Assembly (NCBI GenBank): GCA_028697345.1
Contig: JAQVFF010000001.1
Location: 1-37,059, forward strand
DNA: 37,059 nt
Direction of reading: 5' to 3'
Source of the DNA: Candidatus Shapirobacteria bacterium
GTDB taxonomy: Bacteria; Patescibacteriota; Microgenomatia; 0-14-0-10-38-17
The notes below the pieces were generated by a model. The model saw nothing but the letters and a program-made list of their open reading frames with translations. It was not told where the DNA came from and made no database searches. Shown piece by piece: positions 4,912 through 35,720 of the stretch. Every line of letters starts with the position of its first letter. Position 1 is the stretch's first letter. A program made the translations under genes and the position numbers.

Positions 4912-5060
4912 AACAATTAAACTATCGCGTGGCTAATGAGTTTCTCTTAAAAAGAAATTGACTTTTCTAGTCTTATCCTATCAAACTTAGCTTTTTTTTG
5001 CTATGATTGATAAAATAAGTGACCTTGGACAAAGAGCTAAATACCTATGCTACATTAAAA

Positions 5061-5816
5061 ATGAAAAGAGGATTATTTCGACTGACGTTATTTATTGTTT
5101 TCTTTTTTTTGTTTAACCAACAGGCACGTAGCGCTTGTAATAGTTTTTCAGCCAGCACTAGTACCAATAGTGCCCACGTTTCCGTAAGGGCATCTGGGTG
5201 TGATCCTGACGGTAGATACTTGGTTCAAATAATTCAAAATGACAACGTCATTGAGGCCAATGAATTTTTTGTAAACACAGGCGAGGGTGAGGCAACTTTT
5301 TATTTAAGCGAAGAAGGAAATTATCAAGCTCGATTGTTCTTTGCAACCGATCTAATTGCTTCAACAAACTTTTCGATCCAAAATACTGTTCCCTTGAGTT
5401 GTGGTGATCCCTGTAATCCTAATGACTTAAATTGTCCTCCGGAATGTCCCTCAAGAAGCGTGGGTGCTGGTACTGCTTGGTATTGCCTTAGACCAGAAGA
5501 CTCTTATCCTGGAGAACCTGAGCCTATCGTTCAAGAAGGTTGTGTCGAAACTGCTCTTGGCTGTATTCCAGGCAATCATGAAGAGATGGTTAAATGGATA
5601 TTCCCTTATCTTTTAGGCCTGGGTGGGTTATTAGCCTTTGGCTTAATTGTCTTCTCCGGTATTCAAATATTAACCTCGGGAGGCAATCCAGAAAAAATCC
5701 AAGGTGCCAAAGAGACCATCACTTCAGCCATAACCGGATTACTGTTTATTATCTTGTCTTTATTTCTACTACGGCTGATTGGTATTAATATACTTGGATT
5801 GAAAGGGTTGAATTAA
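5061..5816 (+). CDS. pilin paralog 0: exported beta-rich plus Cys-rich N-terminal module fused to a C-terminal TrbC/VirB2-like T4SS pilin domain
   Basis: The ORF track starts at GTG 5019. ATG 5061 gives a signal peptide, MKRGLFRLTLFIVFFFLFNQQARS/AC. The C-terminal 90 aa (..YLLGLGGLLAFGLIVFSGIQILTSGGNPEKIQGAKETITSAITGLLFIILSLFLL..) aligns with the seven downstream pilin-like ORFs. Confidence 0.75.
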   Translation: MKRGLFRLTLFIVFFFLFNQQARSACNSFSASTSTNSAHVSVRASGCDPDGRYLVQIIQNDNVIEANEFFVNTGEGEATFYLSEEGNYQARLFFATDLIASTNFSIQNTVPLSCGDPCNPNDLNCPPECPSRSVGAGTAWYCLRPEDSYPGEPEPIVQEGCVETALGCIPGNHEEMVKWIFPYLLGLGGLLAFGLIVFSGIQILTSGGNPEKIQGAKETITSAITGLLFIILSLFLLRLIGINILGLKGLN

Positions 5817-5850
5817 CAAAACAAACACTTTATATTAAAATAAAAAAGAA

Positions 5851-6198
5851 ATGATCAAAAAAGGCTCTTTGTTGGCACAAACAGTTAGTTTACCTGATTA
5901 CTCCGATATCACCGGAATCGAAAGCAATGCTCCTATTAGGGGTTGGACCAACATCGGCCAAATCGTATCTTCGGCGCTTACTTATGTCTTTCCTATTGCC
6001 GGCATTTTAGTTTTTATTTACCTTATTTATGGGGGGATAAATCTTATGATCGCTATTGGCAACGAAGAAGGCATTAGGGAAGGTAAAGCCAAAATCACCA
6101 ATGCCTTGATTGGGTTTGTTATTATTTTTGTTGCCTACTGGATAGTCCAAGCCTTGGAAATAGTTTTGGGTGTTACCTTGCTCGACTGGGGTACTTAA
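5851..6198 (+). CDS. TrbC/VirB2-like T4SS pilin paralog 1
   Basis: 115 aa. Shows the helix / charged loop / helix core shared by the array (..IYLIYGGINLMIAIGNEEGIREGKAKITNALIGFVIIF..). Confidence 0.8.
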   Translation: MIKKGSLLAQTVSLPDYSDITGIESNAPIRGWTNIGQIVSSALTYVFPIAGILVFIYLIYGGINLMIAIGNEEGIREGKAKITNALIGFVIIFVAYWIVQALEIVLGVTLLDWGT

Positions 6199-6233
6199 TT
6201 TCAAAATAACTAAAAAAATAATAATCTAAACTA

Positions 6234-6569
6234 ATGAATCACGATAATATATTGGCTGTTGACATTGGGACAGATTTCAAAATTACTCCAAACATGGGAA
6301 TTGGAGAAGCTAATCAATTTAGATCTATCGGCGGCCTCATTTCAACCGTTTTGCCTAATGTTTATCTCTTGGCCGGTCTGATATTGTTGTTCTTCTTGAT
6401 TTTCGGCGGTTTGGCAGTTATATTGGGAGCAGGAAAGGGTAATCAAGAACAGGTTGAAAAAGGCAAAAAAGTTTTAACCGGCACCCTAATTGGGTTTTTG
6501 GTTGTTTTTGCCAGTTTTTGGGTTGTTCAAATTTTAGGAATTATTACCGGAGTAAAAATCTTTAATTAA
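6234..6569 (+). CDS. TrbC/VirB2-like T4SS pilin paralog 2
   Basis: 111 aa. Core ..FLIFGGLAVILGAGKGNQEQVEKGKKVLTGTLIGFLVVF... Confidence 0.8.
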   Translation: MNHDNILAVDIGTDFKITPNMGIGEANQFRSIGGLISTVLPNVYLLAGLILLFFLIFGGLAVILGAGKGNQEQVEKGKKVLTGTLIGFLVVFASFWVVQILGIITGVKIFN

Positions 6570-6584
6570 ACTAAAAATAAAAAA

Positions 6585-6929
6585 ATGAACATTCTACAGG
6601 TTGTTGGTACAATTCAACCTCCTAGTCAAATCACCCCAATAGAAGAGGGAGGCTTAGGTAGTTTCTTAAAAAATATTTTTATTCTTTTGATTGTCGGGGC
6701 GGGGATATTTGCTCTTTTTAATTTCATCCGAGCCGGTTACGCCTATATGGGTGCCAAAGACGATAAAGAAAAAATTAAAGAAGCTACTGCCATGATTATT
6801 AATAGTATTATTGGTCTACTGATTGTTGCCTCTGCTTTTGTAATTGCCGCCCTGGTTGGCCAATTGTTCTTTGGCCGTTGGGATTTTATTATCAGGCCGA
6901 CAATTTTGGGACCAGGAGCATCAGAATAG
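6585..6929 (+). CDS. TrbC/VirB2-like T4SS pilin paralog 3
   Basis: 114 aa. Core ..FNFIRAGYAYMGAKDDKEKIKEATAMIINSIIGLLIV... C-terminal tail ..FIIRPTILGPGAS. Confidence 0.8.
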   Translation: MNILQVVGTIQPPSQITPIEEGGLGSFLKNIFILLIVGAGIFALFNFIRAGYAYMGAKDDKEKIKEATAMIINSIIGLLIVASAFVIAALVGQLFFGRWDFIIRPTILGPGASE

Positions 6930-6948
6930 TTAATGTAAAATTATTTTT

Positions 6949-7314
6949 ATGAGATTTTTTATCAATAAAGTTTTCGCCCAAACTCAAATAGGAGATTTTT
7001 CAGAAGGACCATGGATAGTTCCAAGAGGAAACGATCTTGGTGGCCAAATAGCCGACATTGTTTCCGTTGTTATTGGTATTTTAACGGTTCTGGCTATTAT
7101 TTGGTTTATTATTGAATTCGTTGTTTCCGGCTATATGTTAATTAGTTCTACCGGAGACCAAGAAAAAACCGCTGAAGCCAAAAAAAGACTAACTCAGTCA
7201 CTTATCGGCTTGGTTATTGTTCTTAGCGCTATCGTCCTAATTAATGTCATTGCCTACATTTTCAATATTGATTTCTTAAATATTGGTGAATATCTTAACA
7301 ACTTAAGTTTTTAA
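6949..7314 (+). CDS. TrbC/VirB2-like T4SS pilin paralog 4
   Basis: 121 aa. Core ..FVVSGYMLISSTGDQEKTAEAKKRLTQSLIGLVIVL... Confidence 0.8.
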   Translation: MRFFINKVFAQTQIGDFSEGPWIVPRGNDLGGQIADIVSVVIGILTVLAIIWFIIEFVVSGYMLISSTGDQEKTAEAKKRLTQSLIGLVIVLSAIVLINVIAYIFNIDFLNIGEYLNNLSF

Positions 7315-7319
7315 AAAAC

Positions 7320-7697
7320 ATGGCCATCTTAACTTTAATTGCCGATCGGATCCAAAATCCACTTCTTCCTGATCAAGTATCGACTATGGACCAAACCCCG
7401 GCCATACTTAGCCAAACCTTAAGCAATGTTTTGACCCTGCTATTAATCGGTGCCGGAGTAGCTTTTTTTTTCATGTTTGTTGCCGGAGGATTAAGATGGA
7501 TTTTATCAGCCGGAGATAAAGAAAAAGTTGAAGGAGCCAAAAAGCAAATTTCTTCGGCCATAATCGGTTTAGTATTAATCTTGCTGGTCTTTGCTGTTGT
7601 CAGTTTAATTAGAACTCTTTTTGGCATCAATTTAGTGAGGTTTAACTTGCCCAGATTATTTAGTGGACCAAGTAGACTTGTTTTTGTGACCCTGTAA
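7320..7697 (+). CDS. TrbC/VirB2-like T4SS pilin paralog 5
   Basis: 125 aa. Core ..FFFMFVAGGLRWILSAGDKEKVEGAKKQISSAIIGLVLIL... Closest paralog of the next gene. Contains a T9 run at 7463-7471. Confidence 0.8.
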   Translation: MAILTLIADRIQNPLLPDQVSTMDQTPAILSQTLSNVLTLLLIGAGVAFFFMFVAGGLRWILSAGDKEKVEGAKKQISSAIIGLVLILLVFAVVSLIRTLFGINLVRFNLPRLFSGPSRLVFVTL

Positions 7698-7832
7698 CGG
7701 GCAGATGGACAGGATCAGGTTGTGTCCCAGGACAAGCAGGAGCAAACTGTCAATAATAAATATCACTTAGTTTAAAAATTAGATTCTTAGTATTTTTTAT
7801 ATTAAAATAAAGAAAGAAGGGAGGTGAAAGAA

Positions 7833-8213
7833 ATGAATAATGTTTTAAATAGGGTTGGTTCGGCTATACTGGGAGTTGTTTACGCCCAAGAAATCGCCAT
7901 TCAACCGCCAGACAGTGCTGGGACCCTAAACACCATTACTGTTGAAAATTTAATTTCCGGAACCATCACTTTAGTTTTCATTGCCGCTTCCTTGGTTTTT
8001 TTCTTTATGCTAGTGGCTGGAGGCATTAAGTGGATGATGGCCGGAGGCGATAAAGAAAAAGCCGGCGAAGCTCGAAGCCAATTAACTTCAGCTCTAATTG
8101 GTTTGATTGTTATCTTTCTGGCTTGGGCCATTTCTAAATTATTAGAAACCTTGTTTGGTGTTAATATTTTGGGAGGGTTCAGAATTCCTAATTTTTTTGG
8201 TCCAGCTTCTTAA
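7833..8213 (+). CDS. TrbC/VirB2-like T4SS pilin paralog 6
   Basis: The track starts at GTG 7824. ATG 7833 sits about 10 nt after a strong SD (AAGGGAGG, 7815-7822). Core ..FFFMLVAGGIKWMMAGGDKEKAGEARSQLTSALIGLIVIF... Confidence 0.8.
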   Translation: MNNVLNRVGSAILGVVYAQEIAIQPPDSAGTLNTITVENLISGTITLVFIAASLVFFFMLVAGGIKWMMAGGDKEKAGEARSQLTSALIGLIVIFLAWAISKLLETLFGVNILGGFRIPNFFGPAS

Positions 8214-8221
8214 AATAAGAT

Positions 8222-8548
8222 ATGACCCTTACCAGTTTTTTAACAGGTGTTAGCGTTTTGGCTCAAGATGATAGTGATGTTCATCAGATTCAAGACATTG
8301 AAGAAATAGTTAGTCGGCTTTTAGGACTTGTTGTTCCGTTTGTTGGAATACTCTTGTTGTTAATGTTAATCGCCGGGGGTTTTCAATATATTACCTCCGG
8401 CGGAGAAACGGAACAGGCTCAAAAAGCCAAAAAAACTTTAACTTATGCCTTTTTTGGCCTAGTAGTAGTTTTGGGTGCTTGGTTAATAATTAGACTATTA
8501 GAGGAATTCACGGGACTTAACCTAACAACCTTCCAAATCCCTCGTTAA
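8222..8548 (+). CDS. TrbC/VirB2-like T4SS pilin paralog 7
   Basis: 108 aa. Core ..LMLIAGGFQYITSGGETEQAQKAKKTLTYAFFGLVVVL... Confidence 0.8.
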   Translation: MTLTSFLTGVSVLAQDDSDVHQIQDIEEIVSRLLGLVVPFVGILLLLMLIAGGFQYITSGGETEQAQKAKKTLTYAFFGLVVVLGAWLIIRLLEEFTGLNLTTFQIPR

Positions 8549-14639: not shown

Positions 14640-14794
14640 TTGCTATTCCTCCTTAAGAACTATTATTACAAAAAGGAAGAGAAATAGTCAACTAAATTAA
14701 TAATAGTTACTATTATAAGATACTTTGTTTATTTTTGCCAATATCTTTAATAATCTTGCGCCAATTTGTGGTTTGTTGTAAGCTAGAAAAAGAA

Positions 14795-14826
14795 ATTGTC
14801 AAATTGTTGCATTGTTTAATTGTTAT
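14795..14826. repeat. left arm: four tandem 8-bp units ATTGTCAA ATTGTTGC ATTGTTTA ATTGTTAT, overlapping the start codon of the four-helix-bundle gene
   Basis: Read directly: ATTGT recurs at 14795, 14803, 14811 and 14819, an exact 8-bp period. It is the inverted complement of the 15189-15220 array. Confidence 0.75.
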
Positions 14827-15199
14827 GAAAAAATATTTGCAATTAAACGATATAAAAGCCTACCAAACTGCTTTTTGCCTGTCGAATTACGTTTGGAACC
14901 TTGTTATGAAATGGAAATTATTTGAAAAAAATACCATCGGAAACCAATTCACAAGGTCTGTTGATTCTATTTCCGCTAATATTGCCGAAGGTTTTGGTAG
15001 ATACTCTAAGCGAGACAAAATTAAATTTTATTATTATAGTCAAGGGTCAGTTAAAGAATCTTTAGATTGGAATGAAAAAGCCAAAATAAGGAAGCTTCTC
15101 AAGAAAGAAGAGTACCAACATATTCTACAAGAATTATGTAACTTGCCAAAAGAATTAAATTATTTAATAAGCTTCACCGATAAAAAATTAACAATATAA
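14825..15199 (+). CDS. four-helix-bundle protein (23S rRNA intervening-sequence protein / Avd-like family, PF05635-type)
   Basis: The track starts at TTG 14735. ATG 14825 gives a 124-aa protein, MKKYLQLNDIKAYQTAFCLSNYVWNLV...SVDSISANIAEGFGRYSKRDKIKFYYYSQGSVKESLDW.., the characteristic family signature. Confidence 0.85.
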   Translation: MKKYLQLNDIKAYQTAFCLSNYVWNLVMKWKLFEKNTIGNQFTRSVDSISANIAEGFGRYSKRDKIKFYYYSQGSVKESLDWNEKAKIRKLLKKEEYQHILQELCNLPKELNYLISFTDKKLTI

Positions 15200-15220
15200 C
15201 AATTTAACAGTCTAACAGTT
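15189..15220. repeat. right arm: four tandem 8-bp units TAACAATA TAACAATT TAACAGTC TAACAGTT, overlapping the stop codon of the four-helix-bundle gene
   Basis: Read directly: TAACA(A/G)T recurs at 15189, 15197, 15205 and 15213, an exact 8-bp period. Pairs with 14795-14825 as 23 Watson-Crick, 3 G-U and 5 mismatches over 31 positions. Confidence 0.75.
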
Positions 15221-15227
15221 CGTTCCT

Positions 15228-16079
15228 ATGAACCAACACCCTATTCCACAACACATTTCTTCTTACCAGTTTCGTCTGATAGGGGAGATGACTCTGGAAC
15301 AATTTGGCAAGGTTGCCGGCGGGTGTATTATCGCCCTGGTTTTTTACGCCCTACCCTTGCCAGGCTTTGTTAAATGGTTTTTGATCATTCTATCGGCCTC
15401 TTCTGGAGCCTTATTTGCCTTTGTCCCAGTTGAGGGCCGACCCTTGGAAACTTGGATTATTTCTTTTATTAAATCAATTTATTCACCAACCGAATATGTT
15501 TGGGAAAAGTCACCGGTTGATTTTTTCTTTACTAGAACCGATGACGATTTTTCTAAAAAAGAGATTTTACCCCAAAAGGAAACTGCCCGATCTTTGTCAG
15601 TAAAAGAACTGGCCCTCTTACAAGCATTGTCGGAACAAAAAGATTTTTACAGCCAAGATGAACTAAACCATGCTCAAGCACTGTTAGGGCTTTTTCAACA
15701 AACCACCGCTTCAGGAAAAAGCCCAATCAGTAAACAACCGGTAAAGCCAGAAGCGGCTCAAAAAGAGGCTAGTTTCAAAGAAAATCTGCCTTTTCCCAGC
15801 ACTCCAGATCAGCCAAATATTTTGGTCGGCATGGTAATCGATAAAAACGGCAAAATTTCTGAAGGGGCGATCGTGGAAATCAAAGATCAGGGCGGTAATA
15901 CTGTCCGGGCAATGCGAACCAACAAATTAGGCCAATTCCGATCTGTTTCACCTTTGCCCGATGGCCAATATCAAATCAGCACTGAAAAAACCGGTCTTAA
16001 TTTTGATATAATGAAAATCCAGTTAAAGGGTGAAATTGTTCCTCCAGTTGAAATTAGAGAAACTGGACTAATCAATTAA
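15228..16079 (+). CDS. PrgI-family (VirB3-like) T4SS membrane protein with a C-terminal carboxypeptidase-regulatory-like beta-sandwich
   Basis: 283 aa. N-terminus ..SSYQFRLIGEMTLEQFGKVAGGCIIALVFYALPLPGFVKWFLIILSASSGALFAFVPVEGRPLETWIISFIK.. matches the PrgI pattern. C-terminus ..GMVIDKNGKISEGAIVEIKDQGGNTVRAMRTNKLGQFRSVSPLPDGQYQIS... Confidence 0.7.
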   Translation: MNQHPIPQHISSYQFRLIGEMTLEQFGKVAGGCIIALVFYALPLPGFVKWFLIILSASSGALFAFVPVEGRPLETWIISFIKSIYSPTEYVWEKSPVDFFFTRTDDDFSKKEILPQKETARSLSVKELALLQALSEQKDFYSQDELNHAQALLGLFQQTTASGKSPISKQPVKPEAAQKEASFKENLPFPSTPDQPNILVGMVIDKNGKISEGAIVEIKDQGGNTVRAMRTNKLGQFRSVSPLPDGQYQISTEKTGLNFDIMKIQLKGEIVPPVEIRETGLIN

Positions 16080-24831: not shown

Positions 24832-24860
24832 TTGACTTTTTGTGGAAAACTTTCTATTAT
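24832..24860 (+). promoter_or_regulatory. dnaA promoter candidate with a DnaA box in the spacer
   Basis: TTGACT (24832-24837), 17-nt spacer, TATTAT (24855-24860). The spacer contains TGTGGAAAA (24841-24849), one mismatch from the reverse complement of the TTATCCACA DnaA box. Lies 57 nt upstream of ATG 24917. Confidence 0.55.
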
Positions 24861-24916
24861 TGACTTACTCCTTTAAAGGGCCTGCTGGAAAAGTTTCTGC
24901 CGTTTTTAATAAAAAT

Positions 24917-26263
24917 ATGGATCTTAACCATCTTTGGCAAAATGTTCAAGAAGAACTAAAAATTTCTGTTTCTCAAACTACTTACCAAGGAATGCTGGCT
25001 CAAACCGCTCTTTTAGATTTAAAAGAAAACATTGCCACTATTGGTTGTCCTAATCCTTATCTTCGCGATTTGGTTGAAAACCGCTATTATTCACTAATTA
25101 AGGAGGTTTTAGATCGTCAAACCAAAGAAAAAAACAGTTTAGTTTTTACCATTGACCAGAAGCTGTCAATAATTAAAAAAACTAAAAAGAACCTGGGGCC
25201 ATTATTCAAAAAAAACTCTCCTGTTCAAAAACAATTGGTTGACCCTGCTTTCGGGTTGTTGCCTAATTATAATTTTACCACCTTTGTGGTTGGATCTGCT
25301 AATAACTTTGCCCATGCCGCCGCTCAAGCAATTGTTAAAAATCCTGGCCAAACTTATAACCCTTTCTTTGTTTGGGGTGGAGTAGGAGTAGGCAAAACCC
25401 ATTTAATTCACGCTATTGGCAATGCTATTGCTCAAGGTAATAATGATTTTAAAATTTTATATGTTAGCGCCGAAACCTTCACCAACGAACTGGTTGATGC
25501 TCTACAAAAAAAAACCATTACTAAATTTAAAAACAAATACCGCAAGTGCGATTGTCTTTTGGTTGACGACATCCAATTTATCGCTGGAAAAGAATACTCC
25601 CAAGAAGAATTCTTCCACACTTTTAATGCTCTCTACTTGTCCGGTCGACAAGTAGTTTTAACCTCGGACCGTAAACCGGAAGAAATTCCTAAAGTTGAGG
25701 ATCGGCTTATTTCTCGTTTTATGGGCGGTTTAACGGTTGACATTCAACCTCCAGACTATGAAATGAGACTGGCTATTATCAAACAAAAAGCTCAAGAAAG
25801 AAACTTTTCTTTACCCGAGGAGGTGTTTAGGTTTCTGGCTGAAACAATTGAGTCTAATATTCGCGAACTGGAAGGAGCTTTATTTAAATTAATGATCAAG
25901 GCCCAGAGCAACAAAAGTCCGGTTGATTTAGAATTTGCACAAAACTTTTTTGGTTCCTTTAAAAAAAGAACCCAAAGAGTAACTCCAAAAATAGTTCTTT
26001 CCCGAACCGCTAAACATTTTTCTTTTAAAACGAAAGAGCTTTGTGGAAAAAGCCGTAAATCAGAACTAGTCATCGCCAGACATATTGCTATTTACTTATT
26101 AAGAAAAGATTTAGACTTACCGCTGATGAAAATTGGTGACTTAATCGGCGGCCGAGACCATACGTCAATAATGTATGCTATTGATAAAATTGAACAGGAA
26201 TATTCGAATAATCAGTCTTTGCGCAACAATATTAACCAAATTAGAAACAGTCTGCAATTTTAG
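24917..26263 (+). CDS. dnaA: chromosomal replication initiator DnaA
   Basis: The track starts at GTG 24842, inside the promoter. ATG 24917 gives the typical N-terminus MDLNHLWQNVQEELK... AAA+ Walker A GGVGVGKTHL, Walker B LLVDDIQF, and a C-terminal DNA-binding domain ..IAIYLLRKDLDLPLMKIGDLIGGRDHTSIMYAIDKI... Confidence 0.95.
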   Translation: MDLNHLWQNVQEELKISVSQTTYQGMLAQTALLDLKENIATIGCPNPYLRDLVENRYYSLIKEVLDRQTKEKNSLVFTIDQKLSIIKKTKKNLGPLFKKNSPVQKQLVDPAFGLLPNYNFTTFVVGSANNFAHAAAQAIVKNPGQTYNPFFVWGGVGVGKTHLIHAIGNAIAQGNNDFKILYVSAETFTNELVDALQKKTITKFKNKYRKCDCLLVDDIQFIAGKEYSQEEFFHTFNALYLSGRQVVLTSDRKPEEIPKVEDRLISRFMGGLTVDIQPPDYEMRLAIIKQKAQERNFSLPEEVFRFLAETIESNIRELEGALFKLMIKAQSNKSPVDLEFAQNFFGSFKKRTQRVTPKIVLSRTAKHFSFKTKELCGKSRKSELVIARHIAIYLLRKDLDLPLMKIGDLIGGRDHTSIMYAIDKIEQEYSNNQSLRNNINQIRNSLQF

Positions 26264-26608
26264 AAGAAAACTTTGTGAATTAGTAAGGGTTGTTGTGGAA
26301 AGGTTAGAGGACAGTAATTATTTCTGTGGATAAATTAAATTCAATTTTTCCACAAATTTTAAAAAATTTTCCACAATAAAACCGTTGTTTTTCTAGTTTT
26401 TTAAGACAAACCAAAACCAAAACTAAAGACAAACTATAAGGTTTTTTTCTAAAAAATCTTATTATCCTGTCACTTTTTTAAAAATTAACAGTTTTTTCCT
26501 GTCTTAAATCAGGGTAATTCCACTTTTAAACAATCCCTAACACTAATACTACTATTTTAAATAATTTACTTTTATTATTAATAATAACTTTGATAAAATA
26601 CTTTTATT
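26264..26608. other. probable oriC: DnaA-box cluster plus AT-rich unwinding region in the dnaA-dnaN spacer
   Basis: Perfect box TGTGGATAA at 26325-26333. TGTGGAAAG at 26294-26302. TTTTCCACA at 26346-26354 and at 26367-26375, in the opposite orientation. Weaker TGTGAATTA at 26274-26282. Almost pure A/T from about 26540 to 26608. Confidence 0.75.
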
Positions 26609-27721
26609 ATGAAAGCAATTATTCTTCAAGAAAATCTAAGCAGAGGGTTATCAATTACCAATCGTTTTGTTTCATCTCGACCACAACTACCAATTTTAAA
26701 TAGTATTGCTCTCCAAGCAGAAAAAAATCGTTTTAAAATTTCAGCAACTAACCTGGAAGTTGGTGTTAATTATTATTGTGGTGCCAAAATTGAAGAAGAA
26801 GGCAGTGTAACTGTTCTATCTAAAACTTTTTCCGATTTTGCTTCTTCTCTGCCAGCAGAAAAGGTGATCTTAACCACCAAAAAAGATAATTTAATTGTTG
26901 TTTGTGGTAATTATCGGGCCAGTTTACCAACCAACACCATTGGTGATTTTCCTAAAATACCCACCAAGGTTGATAAAAAAATCTCTTTTCCTTATCAAAA
27001 ATTTATTGAGGCAATTAAAAGTGTTGTTTTTGCCGCCTCAAATGATGATTCTCGACCAGTTTTATCCGGAATTAATTTCCGATTTTCCCAGCAAAATTGT
27101 TTATTATCAGCCACTGATGGTTATCGGTTGTCTTTCAAAAAAATTAAATTAGATAAGAAATATTCTGACTTAGAATTTATTATTCCCTCGATGGTATTAA
27201 CAGAATTAATCAGGATTAAATCGGAAAAAGAGTTATCGGTTTTTGAGTTAGGTTTGGCTAATGAAGAAAAACAGGCGGTTTTTTTTCTTCCCGACTTGGA
27301 ATTTTCTTCTCGTCTTTTAGAAGGAGAATATCCTGATATTAAAAAGGTTATTCCAAAAGAAAAAGATACCACTGTTGTTGTCGACAGGGAGGAATTGTTG
27401 GGAGCAATTAGAACTGCAGCTATTTTTGCTCGAGAATCGGCCAATATTGTTAGATTAGAAATTGCCGGTAATAAGATTAAAATCTTAGCTAATGCTCCCA
27501 GTTTAGGAGAAAACACTAGTCGAATTGAAGCAAAAATAGATGGTAAAAATCAAAGGGTGGCTTTTAATTTTCGTTTTTTAATTGATCTGTTAGTTAATTT
27601 AGATGGTCAACAGGTAATAATTGAACTACAAGAATCTTTAAAACCAGTTGTTTTTAAAAATATTAAAGATAAAACCTTTTTACACATTATTATGCCGGTA
27701 AGAATTCAAGAGGAAGAGTAA
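26609..27721 (+). CDS. dnaN: DNA polymerase III beta sliding clamp
   Basis: 370 aa, immediately after dnaA/oriC. ..LLSATDGYRLS.., ..LLEGEYPDIKKVIP.., ..MPVRI.. are typical DnaN blocks. Confidence 0.9.
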   Translation: MKAIILQENLSRGLSITNRFVSSRPQLPILNSIALQAEKNRFKISATNLEVGVNYYCGAKIEEEGSVTVLSKTFSDFASSLPAEKVILTTKKDNLIVVCGNYRASLPTNTIGDFPKIPTKVDKKISFPYQKFIEAIKSVVFAASNDDSRPVLSGINFRFSQQNCLLSATDGYRLSFKKIKLDKKYSDLEFIIPSMVLTELIRIKSEKELSVFELGLANEEKQAVFFLPDLEFSSRLLEGEYPDIKKVIPKEKDTTVVVDREELLGAIRTAAIFARESANIVRLEIAGNKIKILANAPSLGENTSRIEAKIDGKNQRVAFNFRFLIDLLVNLDGQQVIIELQESLKPVVFKNIKDKTFLHIIMPVRIQEEE

Positions 27722-35571: not shown

Positions 35572-35720
35572 ACAGTAACCAACTAGTAAAAAACTAAAAA
35601 AATAATTATTTAGTTGTTATATTGTACTATATTATTTTTTATCTGTTTTTGGGAAAATAAAACTAACAGTTTAACAACATGATAATAAATTTCATTAAGA
35701 ATTTAAAGTTTTAATTGGGG

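Follow-up and report, generated by a model that had tools for sequence, protein, structure and literature searches.

The element at about 14790-15226 of the window, by which is meant the whole 37,059-nt stretch of Candidatus Shapirobacteria DNA analysed here, is probably a selfish gene cassette of the type known from rRNA intervening sequences (IVSs), lodged in an mRNA leader instead of in 23S rRNA and predicted to work through an RNA stem and RNase III. A build that is shared family-wide, arms that covary, a slot of variable content and a true IVS of the same build together argue that the cassette is IVS-type and evolutionarily mobile. The initial annotation had proposed an IVS-like, possibly mobile cassette in a protein-coding locus, and this is supported by recurrence in 73 loci, by the covariation, by the variable slots and by the Azospirillum locus L254. 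The features of the locus are as follows.

14755-14794, forward strand: host block (CTTGCGCC...TTGTAAGCTAGAA) upstream of the insertion, conserved among relatives
14790-15226, forward strand: replaceable cassette slot with both arrays and the ORF, from BLAST against L243 and the empty L236
14795-14826, forward strand: left arm, four 8-bp units of ATTGTNNN, the final unit overlapping the ATG
14825-15199, forward strand: gene for a 124-aa four-helix-bundle (4HB) protein of PF05635 / TIGR02436 ('S23p', 23S rRNA IVS protein), from profile matches
15189-15220, forward strand: right arm, four 8-bp units of TAACANTN
15221-16079, forward strand: 7-nt spacer, then the PrgI-family gene, with which the host operon opens and which is outside the cassette

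The left array consists, in order, of the units ATTGTCAA ATTGTTGC ATTGTTTA ATTGTTAT (14795-14826) and the right array of TAACAATA TAACAATT TAACAGTC TAACAGTT (15189-15220), sequences and coordinates which had been annotated exactly to the base, and Tandem Repeats Finder returns a period of 8 at both sites. At the RNA level the repeat units are (AUUGUUNN)4 and (UAACAAUN)4. A hand count of 14795-14825 against 15219-15189 reproduces the pairing first described, with 23 Watson-Crick pairs, 3 G-U pairs and 5 mismatches of 31, and the ATG (14825-14827) and the in-frame TAA (15197-15199) do lie within the arms as claimed; the first unit of the right arm encodes a conserved C-terminal L-T-I while the second holds the TAA stop. 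Two hallmarks of IVSs are thus present in the window, namely terminal complementary arms closing a stem around the insert and short tandem units beside the ORF start (four units of 8 bp to each arm). The stem, broken about every 8 bp, is AT-rich.

Comparison of the whole-cassette fold with dinucleotide shuffles was uninformative, and arm-specific duplex and ensemble tests were used instead. In the fold check that the initial annotation had suggested, the whole-region energy proved ordinary (z=-0.64). The arm-arm duplex of the window amounts to -29.6 kcal/mol, against a family-wide mean of -14.8 (sd 4.1) for shuffled arms, and the ensemble of the 470-nt cassette RNA contains 21 expected arm-arm base pairs but only 5.7 when the right arm is shuffled. 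Scored simply as an inverted repeat (30 nt, 80%), the arms stand only modestly above the AT-rich background of the window, which has further inverted repeats of similar length at 70-73%. Because of this modest excess and the fold z of -0.64, significance derives from the periodic arrays and from their conservation in other genomes. The pattern ATTGTN3ATTGTN3ATTGT, with at most 1 mismatch, has 3 matches in the 37-kb window, all inside the two arrays, where 0.02 are expected; 0/100 shuffles reached 3.

The 4HB gene encodes a clear member of its family, matching PF05635 with E=2.5e-24 (85.9 bits against a cut-off of 33.8) and TIGR02436 with 87.2 bits (cut-off 24). To our knowledge, no function has been assigned to PF05635, the 'four helix bundle protein' family, which has thousands of members. 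Relatives of the window protein share 62-90% identity across phyla, with 44 invariant alignment columns and a conserved C-terminal KLTI, and comparison of the codons of the window with those of locus L001 gives 34 synonymous and 13 non-synonymous differences. An exact-sequence search found the window's own protein on no other contig. The R-x3-S-x3-N-x2-E core (...TRSVDSISANIAEGFGR...), reported as the conserved motif of the family (PMC3936711), is present; S48, N52 and E55 are invariant in a 32-sequence alignment, and the G that opens the published motif is offset. Sequence matches in the PDB are the five-chain entries 2GSC and 2RLD, which are weak (E about 0.01). An AlphaFold2 model built on a shallow alignment came out all-helical, but with a pLDDT of 60 its quality is too low for surfaces to be read from it, and a Foldseek search of the PDB with that model returned nothing meaningful.

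The arrays are a property of the family and not of the window alone. In 73 non-redundant relatives from at least eight phyla, nearly all have (ATTGTTNN)n before the ORF and (NNAACAAT)n across its stop codon, with a modal array size of four units per side, and nearly all of 80 GTDB loci likewise read (ATTGTTNN)n ... (NNAACAAT)n, these being drawn from Bacteroidota, at least 12 Patescibacteria lineages, Ignavibacteria, Gammaproteobacteria, Planctomycetota, Omnitrophota and Bdellovibrionales. Both arrays are kept in orthologues at 90% and 72% identity as well as in Bacteroidota and Paceibacterota copies in other gene contexts. Absence of the arrays around orthologous 4HB genes would have spoken against the initial annotation; they are clearly present and recur across phyla. 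Other PF05635 subfamilies have inverted 7- or 8-mer arrays too, and every 4HB subfamily shows a unit of its own: ATTGTT in family 1, TTAAAAAT in L243, ATGGAAAA in L168, AAGGTTYA in Riemerella, CAGAGGA in Azospirillum and GACAGAT in Coxiella, and among Cyanobacteria GGGTGTR (Nostoc, Calothrix), GCAGAAG (PCC 7120, Stanieria) and GGTGACA (Anabaena 90).

Could the arrays be chance products or slippage microsatellites of an AT-rich genome, unrelated to the ORF? The similar inverted repeats elsewhere in the window are in keeping with this, as are at least 120 viral contigs with (ATTGTTNN)3 loci, mostly intergenic leaders in giant-virus MAGs (metagenome-assembled genomes) and some of them ORF-less hairpins, with no 4HB gene near the array among the matches listed; outside bacteria the motif alone is therefore not diagnostic. 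Against it, a 4HB ORF lies no more than 160 nt away from 134 of the 169 arrays counted in 452 kb, arrays are retained beside the ORF, to varying extent, in 73/73 lineage-diverse loci, and the arms covary. A chance or microsatellite origin is refuted by the expected counts, the 73-locus conservation, the arm duplex tests and the proximity to 4HB genes, and we give it next to no credence.

Covariation is what ties the two arms to each other. The duplex formed with a cassette's own arm has a mean of -29.8 kcal/mol; foreign arms reach only -23.0 (permutation p<1e-4) and shuffled ones -14.8. The variant units ATGGTT/AACCAT and ATTGTC/GACAAT change in step between the arms (Spearman 0.55 and 0.53; p<2e-6), and such joint switches are scattered over the protein tree, at about six points. 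At least 15 arm-arm base pairs are expected in 62/73 full-length cassette RNAs but in only 14/73 when the right arm is shuffled. The transition variants ATTGCT/AGCAAT and ACTGTT/AACAGT are uncompensated between the arms. No strand asymmetry was found (-29.8 kcal/mol for sense and -30.4 for antisense, p=0.32; 228 vs 246 G-U pairs), and since there is no G-U versus A-C strand signal this comparison cannot show constraint acting on the sense RNA; a constraint on the sense strand at the RNA level only should favour G-U over A-C. Across phyla the ATTGTT core is more conserved than pairing needs, which hints at sequence-specific recognition. The L-T-I codon anchor could alternatively account for the conservation of this core.

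These observations bear on a second reading, which we consider possible without favouring it, that the 7-/8-nt units are iterated binding sites, in RNA, ssDNA or dsDNA, for the cassette's own, putatively ring-shaped 4HB protein. Translation would then be autoregulated, the left array overlapping the start codon, and/or the complex would move or maintain the element, and arm complementarity would be secondary because one protein recognises both ends. The pairing of every 4HB subfamily with its own unit, the retention of the core motif across phyla and the absence of sense/antisense asymmetry would all fit, although common descent by itself would also produce a correlation of motif with subfamily. 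Purifying selection acts on the protein, many of whose polar residues are invariant, its homologues crystallise with five chains per entry, and ORF-bearing and ORF-less copies occur together like autonomous and non-autonomous elements; yet the modal unit count is four and not five, the arms differ in sequence on any one strand so that a single-strand binder would see one arm only, and sites 8 bp apart would not readily be contacted in series from a single face of dsDNA. Avd, which is related to the 4HB protein, binds nucleic acid and reverse transcriptase. Repeat binding and an RNA stem can coexist.

Insertion and mobility are indicated by the slot itself. The host operon runs PrgI / TraC-like / VirB4 / CHAP and is interrupted in the PrgI leader, the cassette lying between a divergent 700-aa gene and prgI. 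The 14755-14794 block is shared by the window, L001, L011, L236, L237 and L243 regardless of slot content and probably serves the PrgI operon as promoter or leader. A scan for the sigma-70 consensus found no promoter-like forward-strand site upstream of the cassette, the sole forward match (15012-15040) being within the ORF. A metagenome scan with the PrgI protein gave 10 loci, including decisive empty and alternatively filled slots. L236 has the same flanks and is empty at the insertion point. In L243, where the PrgI N-terminus is 98% identical, the slot holds a different 4HB gene with arms of TTAAAAAT-type units; BLAST of the window against this locus gives 83% identity up to 14789 and 82% from 15227, with no homology between. 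L237 has a 229-bp ORF-less hairpin in the slot, and L235 a cassette other than that of the window. The empty site for which the initial annotation had advised a search thus exists, in L236, and the slot is otherwise differently filled.

The same comparison weighs on a third reading, which we regard as rather doubtful, in which the arms act at the level of DNA, as terminal inverted repeats or as hairpins for recombination, akin to MITE/REP ends, integron attC or IS200/IS605-like elements. A trans-acting recombinase or homologous recombination from array to array would exchange cassettes at existing arrays, the RNA stem being incidental. Such exchange would fit the one slot that has housed different cassettes, where the L237 and L243 inserts keep remnants of type-1 units (ATTGTTTA, AATTGACA) at their left edge, and also the tandem or chimeric cassettes in L220; the strand-symmetric arm constraint and the spread of the family across phyla at 62-73% identity would fit as well. 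ORF-less ATTGTT/AACAAT hairpins, found in L164, L193, L178, L198 and L230, are MITE-like, and such arm-only hairpins share genomes with ORF-bearing cassettes. Against this, no transposase or recombinase was found in or beside the cassettes and no other mobility mechanism was identified, and no clear target-site duplication is seen at the window, L237 or L243 junctions relative to the empty L236. Neighbouring genes are co-directional with the cassette in 66/73 cases upstream and 66/71 downstream, a 90% co-orientation with host genes that recombination at DNA ends would not lead one to expect, barring selection for ORF expression or against antisense insertion. The arms are identical within L001-L010, L011-L020 and L021-L030 (three populations of 10 contigs each); they are therefore not hypervariable contingency loci, and give no sign of ongoing rearrangement.

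That the cassette might gate expression of the PrgI/VirB4 apparatus had been raised in the initial annotation, and in its strongest form it would be a dedicated regulator of this secretion apparatus recruited for the operon. Its position would fit, the right array closing, as noted at the outset, near the PrgI start (array end 15220, PrgI ATG 15228, 7 bases between), and the 4HB-PrgI adjacency recurs in L205 and in L001 and L011, 28 nt separating the 4HB stop from the PrgI ATG in the last two, while L031 has a copy between PrgI and the TraC-like gene. Most family members, however, lie in unrelated operons, such as atpG-atpD, bamA-skp, cas10-cmr3 and sufA-sufB, with further contexts including glycosyltransferases, hydrogenase-HypA and LigA, and close relatives of the operon either lack the cassette (L236) or have a different one (L243, L235, L237). 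An old insertion that was inherited, together with a second, independent one in L031, accounts for the recurrence beside PrgI. A gating role thus finds no specific support, the slots that are empty or differently filled largely refuting a role particular to the type IV secretion (T4SS) operon, and we hold a dedicated regulator to be very unlikely. Spacers around the cassettes are short, about 24-60 nt upstream and 18-60 nt downstream, which together with the shared direction of the neighbours points to reliance on transcription from the host; two MAGs contain two cassette copies each.

For the IVS-type cassette that we favour, the following course can be proposed. The unit at ~14790-15226, a promoter-less 124-aa 4HB gene between inverted arms of four 8-bp units each, would be co-transcribed with the PrgI operon, whereupon the arms would pair into an interrupted stem of ~30 bp with the ORF looped out and its start and stop codons buried. 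The tandem units would allow pairing in several registers, for which the C-terminal codons TTA ACA ATN (L-T-I), forming the first right-hand unit, may serve as anchor. By analogy with rRNA IVSs we infer that the stem is an RNase III substrate, cleavage of which would free the cassette RNA from the host message; such separation is proposed as the reason why insertion is tolerated inside operons. The strongly conserved protein would bind the repeats and serve processing or spread by acting on the arms in trans, and this is likewise proposed to be why ORF-less copies persist. Stem length is alike for 4 x 7 or 4 x 8 nt, in keeping with a possible demand on dsRNA length. Stop codons in all three frames occur within the right array in 40/73 loci, a modest enrichment over the 34% found in shuffles.

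The closest known counterparts are the rRNA IVSs with an S23p ORF (Coxiella burnetii, Leptospira, Azospirillum), which have the same protein family in the loop. We know of no explanation offered for rRNA IVSs since about 1990. L254 is a genuine 23S IVS, within an LSU rRNA gene (Rfam, 622 bits), and its 4HB ORF stands between the inverted heptamers CAGAGGA CGGATGA... / ...CTGTCAT CCGTCTT. The Coxiella IVS has a 28-bp terminal stem that is cut by RNase III in vitro and two to three tandem GACAGAT heptamers directly upstream of the S23p ATG, the copy number differing between strains (PMC4990558). Complementary terminal arms of about 28-32 nt, short tandem units arrayed immediately before the ATG (in Coxiella and Azospirillum L254), the existence of ORF-bearing and ORF-less forms, and a sporadic distribution suggesting horizontal transfer are common to the rRNA IVSs and the cassette family. 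The window element differs in lying in the 5' leader of a protein-coding operon and not in 23S helix 25 or 45, in having units of 8 nt instead of 7, and in a strongly conserved ORF, the Coxiella counterpart being in decay and probably not translated; the rRNA IVSs have been shown to be cleaved by RNase III, whereas cleavage of the window stem is inferred. The slot is not in an rRNA helix, Rfam finding only a tmRNA (1-249) in the window, and no rRNA was found in 20 related loci scanned. The open-access literature yielded no earlier account of 4HB cassettes outside rRNA whose arms are built of octamers or heptamers.

Resemblance to other systems is less complete. Avd of diversity-generating retroelements has a homologous pentameric four-helix-bundle fold, and the relationship of PF05635 to cd16375 has been noted (PMC10053308); however, there are no template/variable repeats near the window gene and no reverse transcriptase, such a domain being absent from every scanned window ORF of at least 90 aa, the neighbours in the 73 related loci are ordinary operon genes, and Avd genes are not described with bracketing inverted 7-/8-mer arrays. 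Intergenic heptamer arrays (TAACTGA; the cyanobacterial STRR/GGGGA(C/T)T; Xanthomonas GGGAATC) are likewise short-period direct repeats of 2-6+ units in operon spacers and, like the right array, often end one to a few nucleotides before a start codon. TAACTGA arrays, in Beggiatoaceae, Cyanobacteria and Bacteroidetes, are tandem heptamers of unknown function (PMC4679880), and heptamer arrays vary by whole-unit indels with horizontal spread suspected by a mechanism that is not known (PMC4679880); in Xanthomonas 70-75 convergent 'inverted pairs' were counted (PMC4692102), and heptamers have been described as the commonest periodic repeat between genes in prokaryotes, their function being left with 'no clear clue' (PMC6344855). 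Those papers draw no link to PF05635. The arrays of the window have a period of 8 and not 7, lie 7 nt from a start codon, and are paired and inverted around a 4HB ORF, and the family also has ORF-less hairpins of the same units; heptamer versions flank 4HB genes in cyanobacterial plasmids. With MITE/REP hairpins the cassettes share the form of short inverted-repeat elements in spacers, autonomous and non-autonomous, that break short-read assemblies. They differ in having neither transposase nor RAYT and no clear target-site duplication, in arms that are tandem arrays and not unique inverted repeats, and in their strong co-orientation with the host.

The data join the PF05635 family, the rRNA IVSs and the intergenic heptamers into one type of element, a small ORF in a hairpin with tandem 7-/8-mer arms, co-directional in operon spacers or in rRNA, for which RNase III cuts in mRNA leaders and recognition of the repeats by the protein are predicted. 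We tentatively suggest, as a conjecture that may well prove wrong, that PF05635 genes with their inverted 7-/8-mer arrays are the autonomous members of an unrecognised pan-bacterial class of hairpins ('IVS elements') in rRNA helices and operon spacers, that their putatively ring-shaped protein recognises its own units and drives processing or spread, and that ORF-less derivatives make up a substantial share of the STRR, TAACTGA and Xanthomonas GGGAATC repeats. For annotation, 4HB genes with arrays should be read as insertions and not as operon components: the PrgI/VirB4 operon of the window has a passenger in its leader that is absent from relatives. Genes for 23S_rRNA_IVP have been reported as 'associated' with cas operons (PMC3936711), for which insertion into spacers is the simpler reading.

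The 4HB (four-helix-bundle) gene of the window is bracketed by two inverted arrays of 8-bp units, whose sequences and positions were borne out exactly on inspection (all on the forward strand):

14795-14826, left array, four units: ATTGTCAA ATTGTTGC ATTGTTTA ATTGTTAT
14825, ATG start codon, overlapping the last left unit
15189-15220, right array, four units: TAACAATA TAACAATT TAACAGTC TAACAGTT
15197, in-frame TAA stop codon, inside the second right unit

The 124-aa ORF matches PF05635 (E=2.5e-24) and TIGR02436, the 'S23p' or 23S rRNA intervening sequence (IVS) protein family. The period of 8 was confirmed, the arrays are unique within the window (3 overlapping matches vs 0.02 expected), and a hand count of the arm pairing likewise gave the 23 Watson-Crick pairs, 3 G-U pairs and 5 mismatches of 31 first reported. 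Comparison with shuffled sequences, proposed in the initial annotation as a check on this stem, gave the fold of the whole region no extra stability (z=-0.64), and the arms, taken simply as an inverted repeat, rise only somewhat over the AT-rich background of the window. The stem taken alone is thus weak evidence, and the case rests on the periodicity of the arrays and on comparison with other loci.

Close relatives of the window protein number in the thousands, 3637 clusters having been returned, the best 120 of which are at least 67% identical. Many lie on contigs of 1-2 kb, which is the expected outcome where repeats break an assembly. In the orthologous loci L001 (90% identity) and L011 (72%) both arrays are kept and 28 nt separate the 4HB gene from prgI downstream. 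Arrays as in the window also surround a Bacteroidota copy (L021; neighbours, a hexapeptide transferase and FmdE) and a Paceibacterota copy (L031; neighbours, prgI and a TraC-like gene). A GTDB scan with one genome per species yielded 80 loci from Bacteroidota, at least 12 Patescibacteria lineages, Ignavibacteria, Melioribacter and Chlorobi, Gammaproteobacteria, Planctomycetota, Omnitrophota, Bdellovibrionales and Ca. Hatepunaea. Nearly all present (ATTGTTNN)n ahead of the ATG and (NNAACAAT)n over the stop codon in the 70 nt printed per side, the first right unit encoding the conserved C-terminus K-L-T-I (TTA ACA ATN TAA); the number of units per side has a mode of 4 (35/73 and 34/73) and ranges from 1 to 11. 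The arrays therefore belong to the gene family and not to the window locus alone. In lineages using Shine-Dalgarno sequences a GGAGG separates the left array from the ATG (e.g. L192, L198, L179), which, with 34 synonymous and 13 non-synonymous codon differences between the window and L001 ORFs, indicates from sequence that the 4HB protein is made and under selection. Arm polarity is reversed at L189 (2700-3905), with (TAACCATC)6 upstream and ATTGTTGG units downstream; 400 bp past this element there is an array of 15 AGCAATCC/AACCATCC units.

The left and right arms co-vary across the family. Among 73 non-redundant elements for which arm duplex energies were computed, an element's own arms gave a mean of -29.8 kcal/mol vs -23.0 for arms of different elements (permutation p<1e-4) and -14.8 for shuffled arms. 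The variant ATGGTT switches jointly with AACCAT in the other arm (rho 0.55, p=3.5e-7), as does ATTGTC with GACAAT (rho 0.53, p=1.7e-6), these switches being scattered over about six positions of the protein tree. 'Variable' dinucleotides are matched between the arms in several elements (including L199, L209 and L192), and the match in L222 is perfect across 24 nt. In full-length cassette RNAs at least 15 arm-arm pairs are expected in 62/73, vs 14/73 with the right arm shuffled (21 vs 5.7 pairs for the window cassette). Sense and antisense duplexes do not differ in stability (p=0.32; G-U counts 228 vs 246) and transition variants are uncompensated between arms, which argues against a purely sense-RNA constraint. 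This absence of strand asymmetry keeps alive two further models, both compatible with a stem, in which the units would be protein-binding iterons or the arms would be sites of recombination at the DNA level.

The upstream neighbour is co-directional with the 4HB gene in 66/73 cases and the downstream neighbour in 66/71, with gaps of about 24-60 nt and 18-60 nt respectively, so that the arrays make up essentially the whole of the intergenic spacers. The flanking genes are mutually unrelated (upstream/downstream): BamA/OmpH(Skp), ATP synthase gamma/beta, RadC/patatin, NiFe hydrogenase/HypA, a cupredoxin/SLH-domain protein upstream of LigA, glycosyltransferases on both sides or radical SAM genes on both sides and, in other PF05635 subfamilies, cas10/cmr3, cas6/cas4 and sufA/sufB. 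With neighbours this varied, the 'association' reported between 23S_rRNA_IVP and cas operons (PMC3936711) can be read more simply. The gating role specific to the type IV secretion apparatus (T4SS) that had been envisaged for the right arm is not supported.

Relatives of the window locus, found by searching metagenomes with PrgI, share with it the divergent 700-aa gene and a conserved block, CTTGCGC...TTGTAA(G/T)CT. The site is empty in L236, where this block continues directly into the PrgI ATG. L237, with flanks 88-91% identical to those of L236, carries a 229-bp hairpin without an ORF, inserted 2-3 nt ahead of the ATG. In L243, whose PrgI N-terminus is 98% and flanks 82-83% identical to those of the window, the slot corresponding to 14790-15226 is occupied by a different 125-aa TIGR02436 protein with arms CAGTTAAAAATTAAAAATTC... 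/ ...TTTGACTTTTAATTTTTAACTG. These differences mark the cassette as an insertion that evolution has gained, lost or exchanged; neither a transposase nor a clear target duplication was seen for it. It is not hypervariable, since in three populations the arms are identical over 10 contigs apiece. Before another PrgI orthologue (L244, 1930-2100), inverted AAGA-rich/TCTT-rich arrays without an ORF end at the ATG, a different unit in the same layout. A GC-rich palindrome, CCGCCAGC...GCTGGCGG, lies among AT-rich repeat units in both the PrgI-TraC spacer of L011 (7247-7387) and the ORF-less insert of L237 (930-960), and is possibly a further small element lodged within the arrays.

A 4HB ORF adjoins 134/169 of the ATTGTT/AACAAT arrays in 452 kb of loci. 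The remainder include hairpins consisting solely of one left and one right array, 10-25 nt apart, which likewise end 1-10 nt ahead of the next start codon (L164, L193, L178, L198, L230). L220 (2960-4370) holds tandem or chimeric cassettes: a family-1 cassette (family 1 being the ATTGTT/AACAAT subfamily of the window), after it another TIGR02436 ORF of a different kind and, further on, a left-type array and the first seven family-1 codons fused to a third 4HB-like ORF. The coexistence of ORF-bearing and ORF-less copies also keeps the iteron and recombination models in play, as do the subfamily-specific units. Other PF05635 subfamilies have inverted arrays, each with its own unit:

L168: ATGGAAAA / TTTTCCAT
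Nostoc punctiforme and Calothrix: heptamers GGGTGTR / YACACCC
Geminocystis: AAAAGGG / CCCTTTT
Stanieria: GCAGAAG / CTTCTGC
Picosynechococcus: GGAGATA / TATCTCC
Anabaena 90: GGTGACA / TGTCACC
Riemerella: AAGGTTYA / TRAACCTT

Exceptions are L245, with no arrays, L255, with direct G-rich arrays on either side, and L189, with its reversed polarity. On cyanobacterial plasmids (L246, L247, L248, L251, L252, L253) the inverted tandem heptamers around 4HB/'S23 ribosomal protein' genes are STRR-type in appearance, which suggests that some STRR arrays are arms or relics of 4HB cassettes. Four IMG/VR loci, several labelled as giant-virus MAGs (L058, L067, L085, L104), hold (ATTGTTNN)n and (NNAACAAT)n arrays lacking a 4HB gene, some as ORF-less hairpins and some, in divergent intergenic regions, directly 5' of the ATGs of both strands. 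In the window itself, the triosephosphate isomerase-RpiB spacer (35600-35670) contains a weak two-unit relic, AGTTGTTATATTGTA ... TAACAGTTTAACAAC, which resembles a family-1 ORF-less hairpin and whose halves are paired in the MFE fold.

A cassette within rRNA, a possibility raised initially, is present on plasmid AZO_p2 of Azospirillum lipoferum 4B (L254, 13889-15137), where a 4HB ORF lies in an IVS of a 23S rRNA gene (Rfam bacterial LSU, 622 bits) between inverted heptamers (CAGAGGA CGGATGA CAGAGGA CGGAGGA ... CCGTCCT CTGTCTT CTGTCAT CCGTCTT). This ORF is unannotated, the PLSDB table having no feature there. The build of this real rRNA IVS is identical to that of the cassette family, and the window element has all the structural features of an IVS except the rRNA host. 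The terminal stem of the Coxiella IVS measures 28 bp and is cut mid-stem by RNase III in vitro, and two to three tandem GACAGAT heptamers, their number strain-dependent, lie directly ahead of the S23p ATG (PMC4990558); rRNA insertions of CPR bacteria sometimes contain an S23p/4HB ORF (bioRxiv 10.1101/2024.02.27.582315). To the family-wide architecture, co-varying arms, co-directional spacer position, polymorphic slot and ORF-less derivatives established by these comparisons a mechanism can be fitted, in which the cassette would be co-transcribed from a promoter of the host operon (candidate, the conserved block 14755-14794), a stem of about 30 bp would enclose the start and stop codons in the transcript and be cut by RNase III, after the rRNA IVS precedent, and the conserved protein would act in trans on the arms. 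Arms of 4 x 7 and 4 x 8 nt are similar in total length, which fits a dsRNA-length requirement.

IVSs with S23p ORFs and inverted termini were already known, as were the Avd homology of the family (PMC10053308) and intergenic heptamer arrays of unexplained function (PMC4679880, PMC4692102, PMC6344855). In the open-access literature we found no description of PF05635 genes forming cassettes with array arms in the spacers of operons and no link between heptamer/octamer arrays and these genes. The finding connects three unexplained phenomena.

Elsewhere in the window, the chromosome probably has its replication origin at 26270-26600 (between ORFs 24842-26263 and 26609-27721), where dnaA (Bac_DnaA, E=1e-66) and dnaN lie on either side of a 345-bp AT-rich spacer with DnaA-box-like motifs TGTGGATAA and TTTTCCACA(A) at about 26320-26380. 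At 1-249 the window edge truncates a tmRNA gene, of which the 3' part is present (Rfam RF00023, 66 bits). Each of eight consecutive genes at 5019-8548, one of 265 aa and seven of 108-129 aa, matches T4SS_pilin (PF18895); together they form an unusually large tandem array of paralogues 5' of the PrgI/VirB4 genes.
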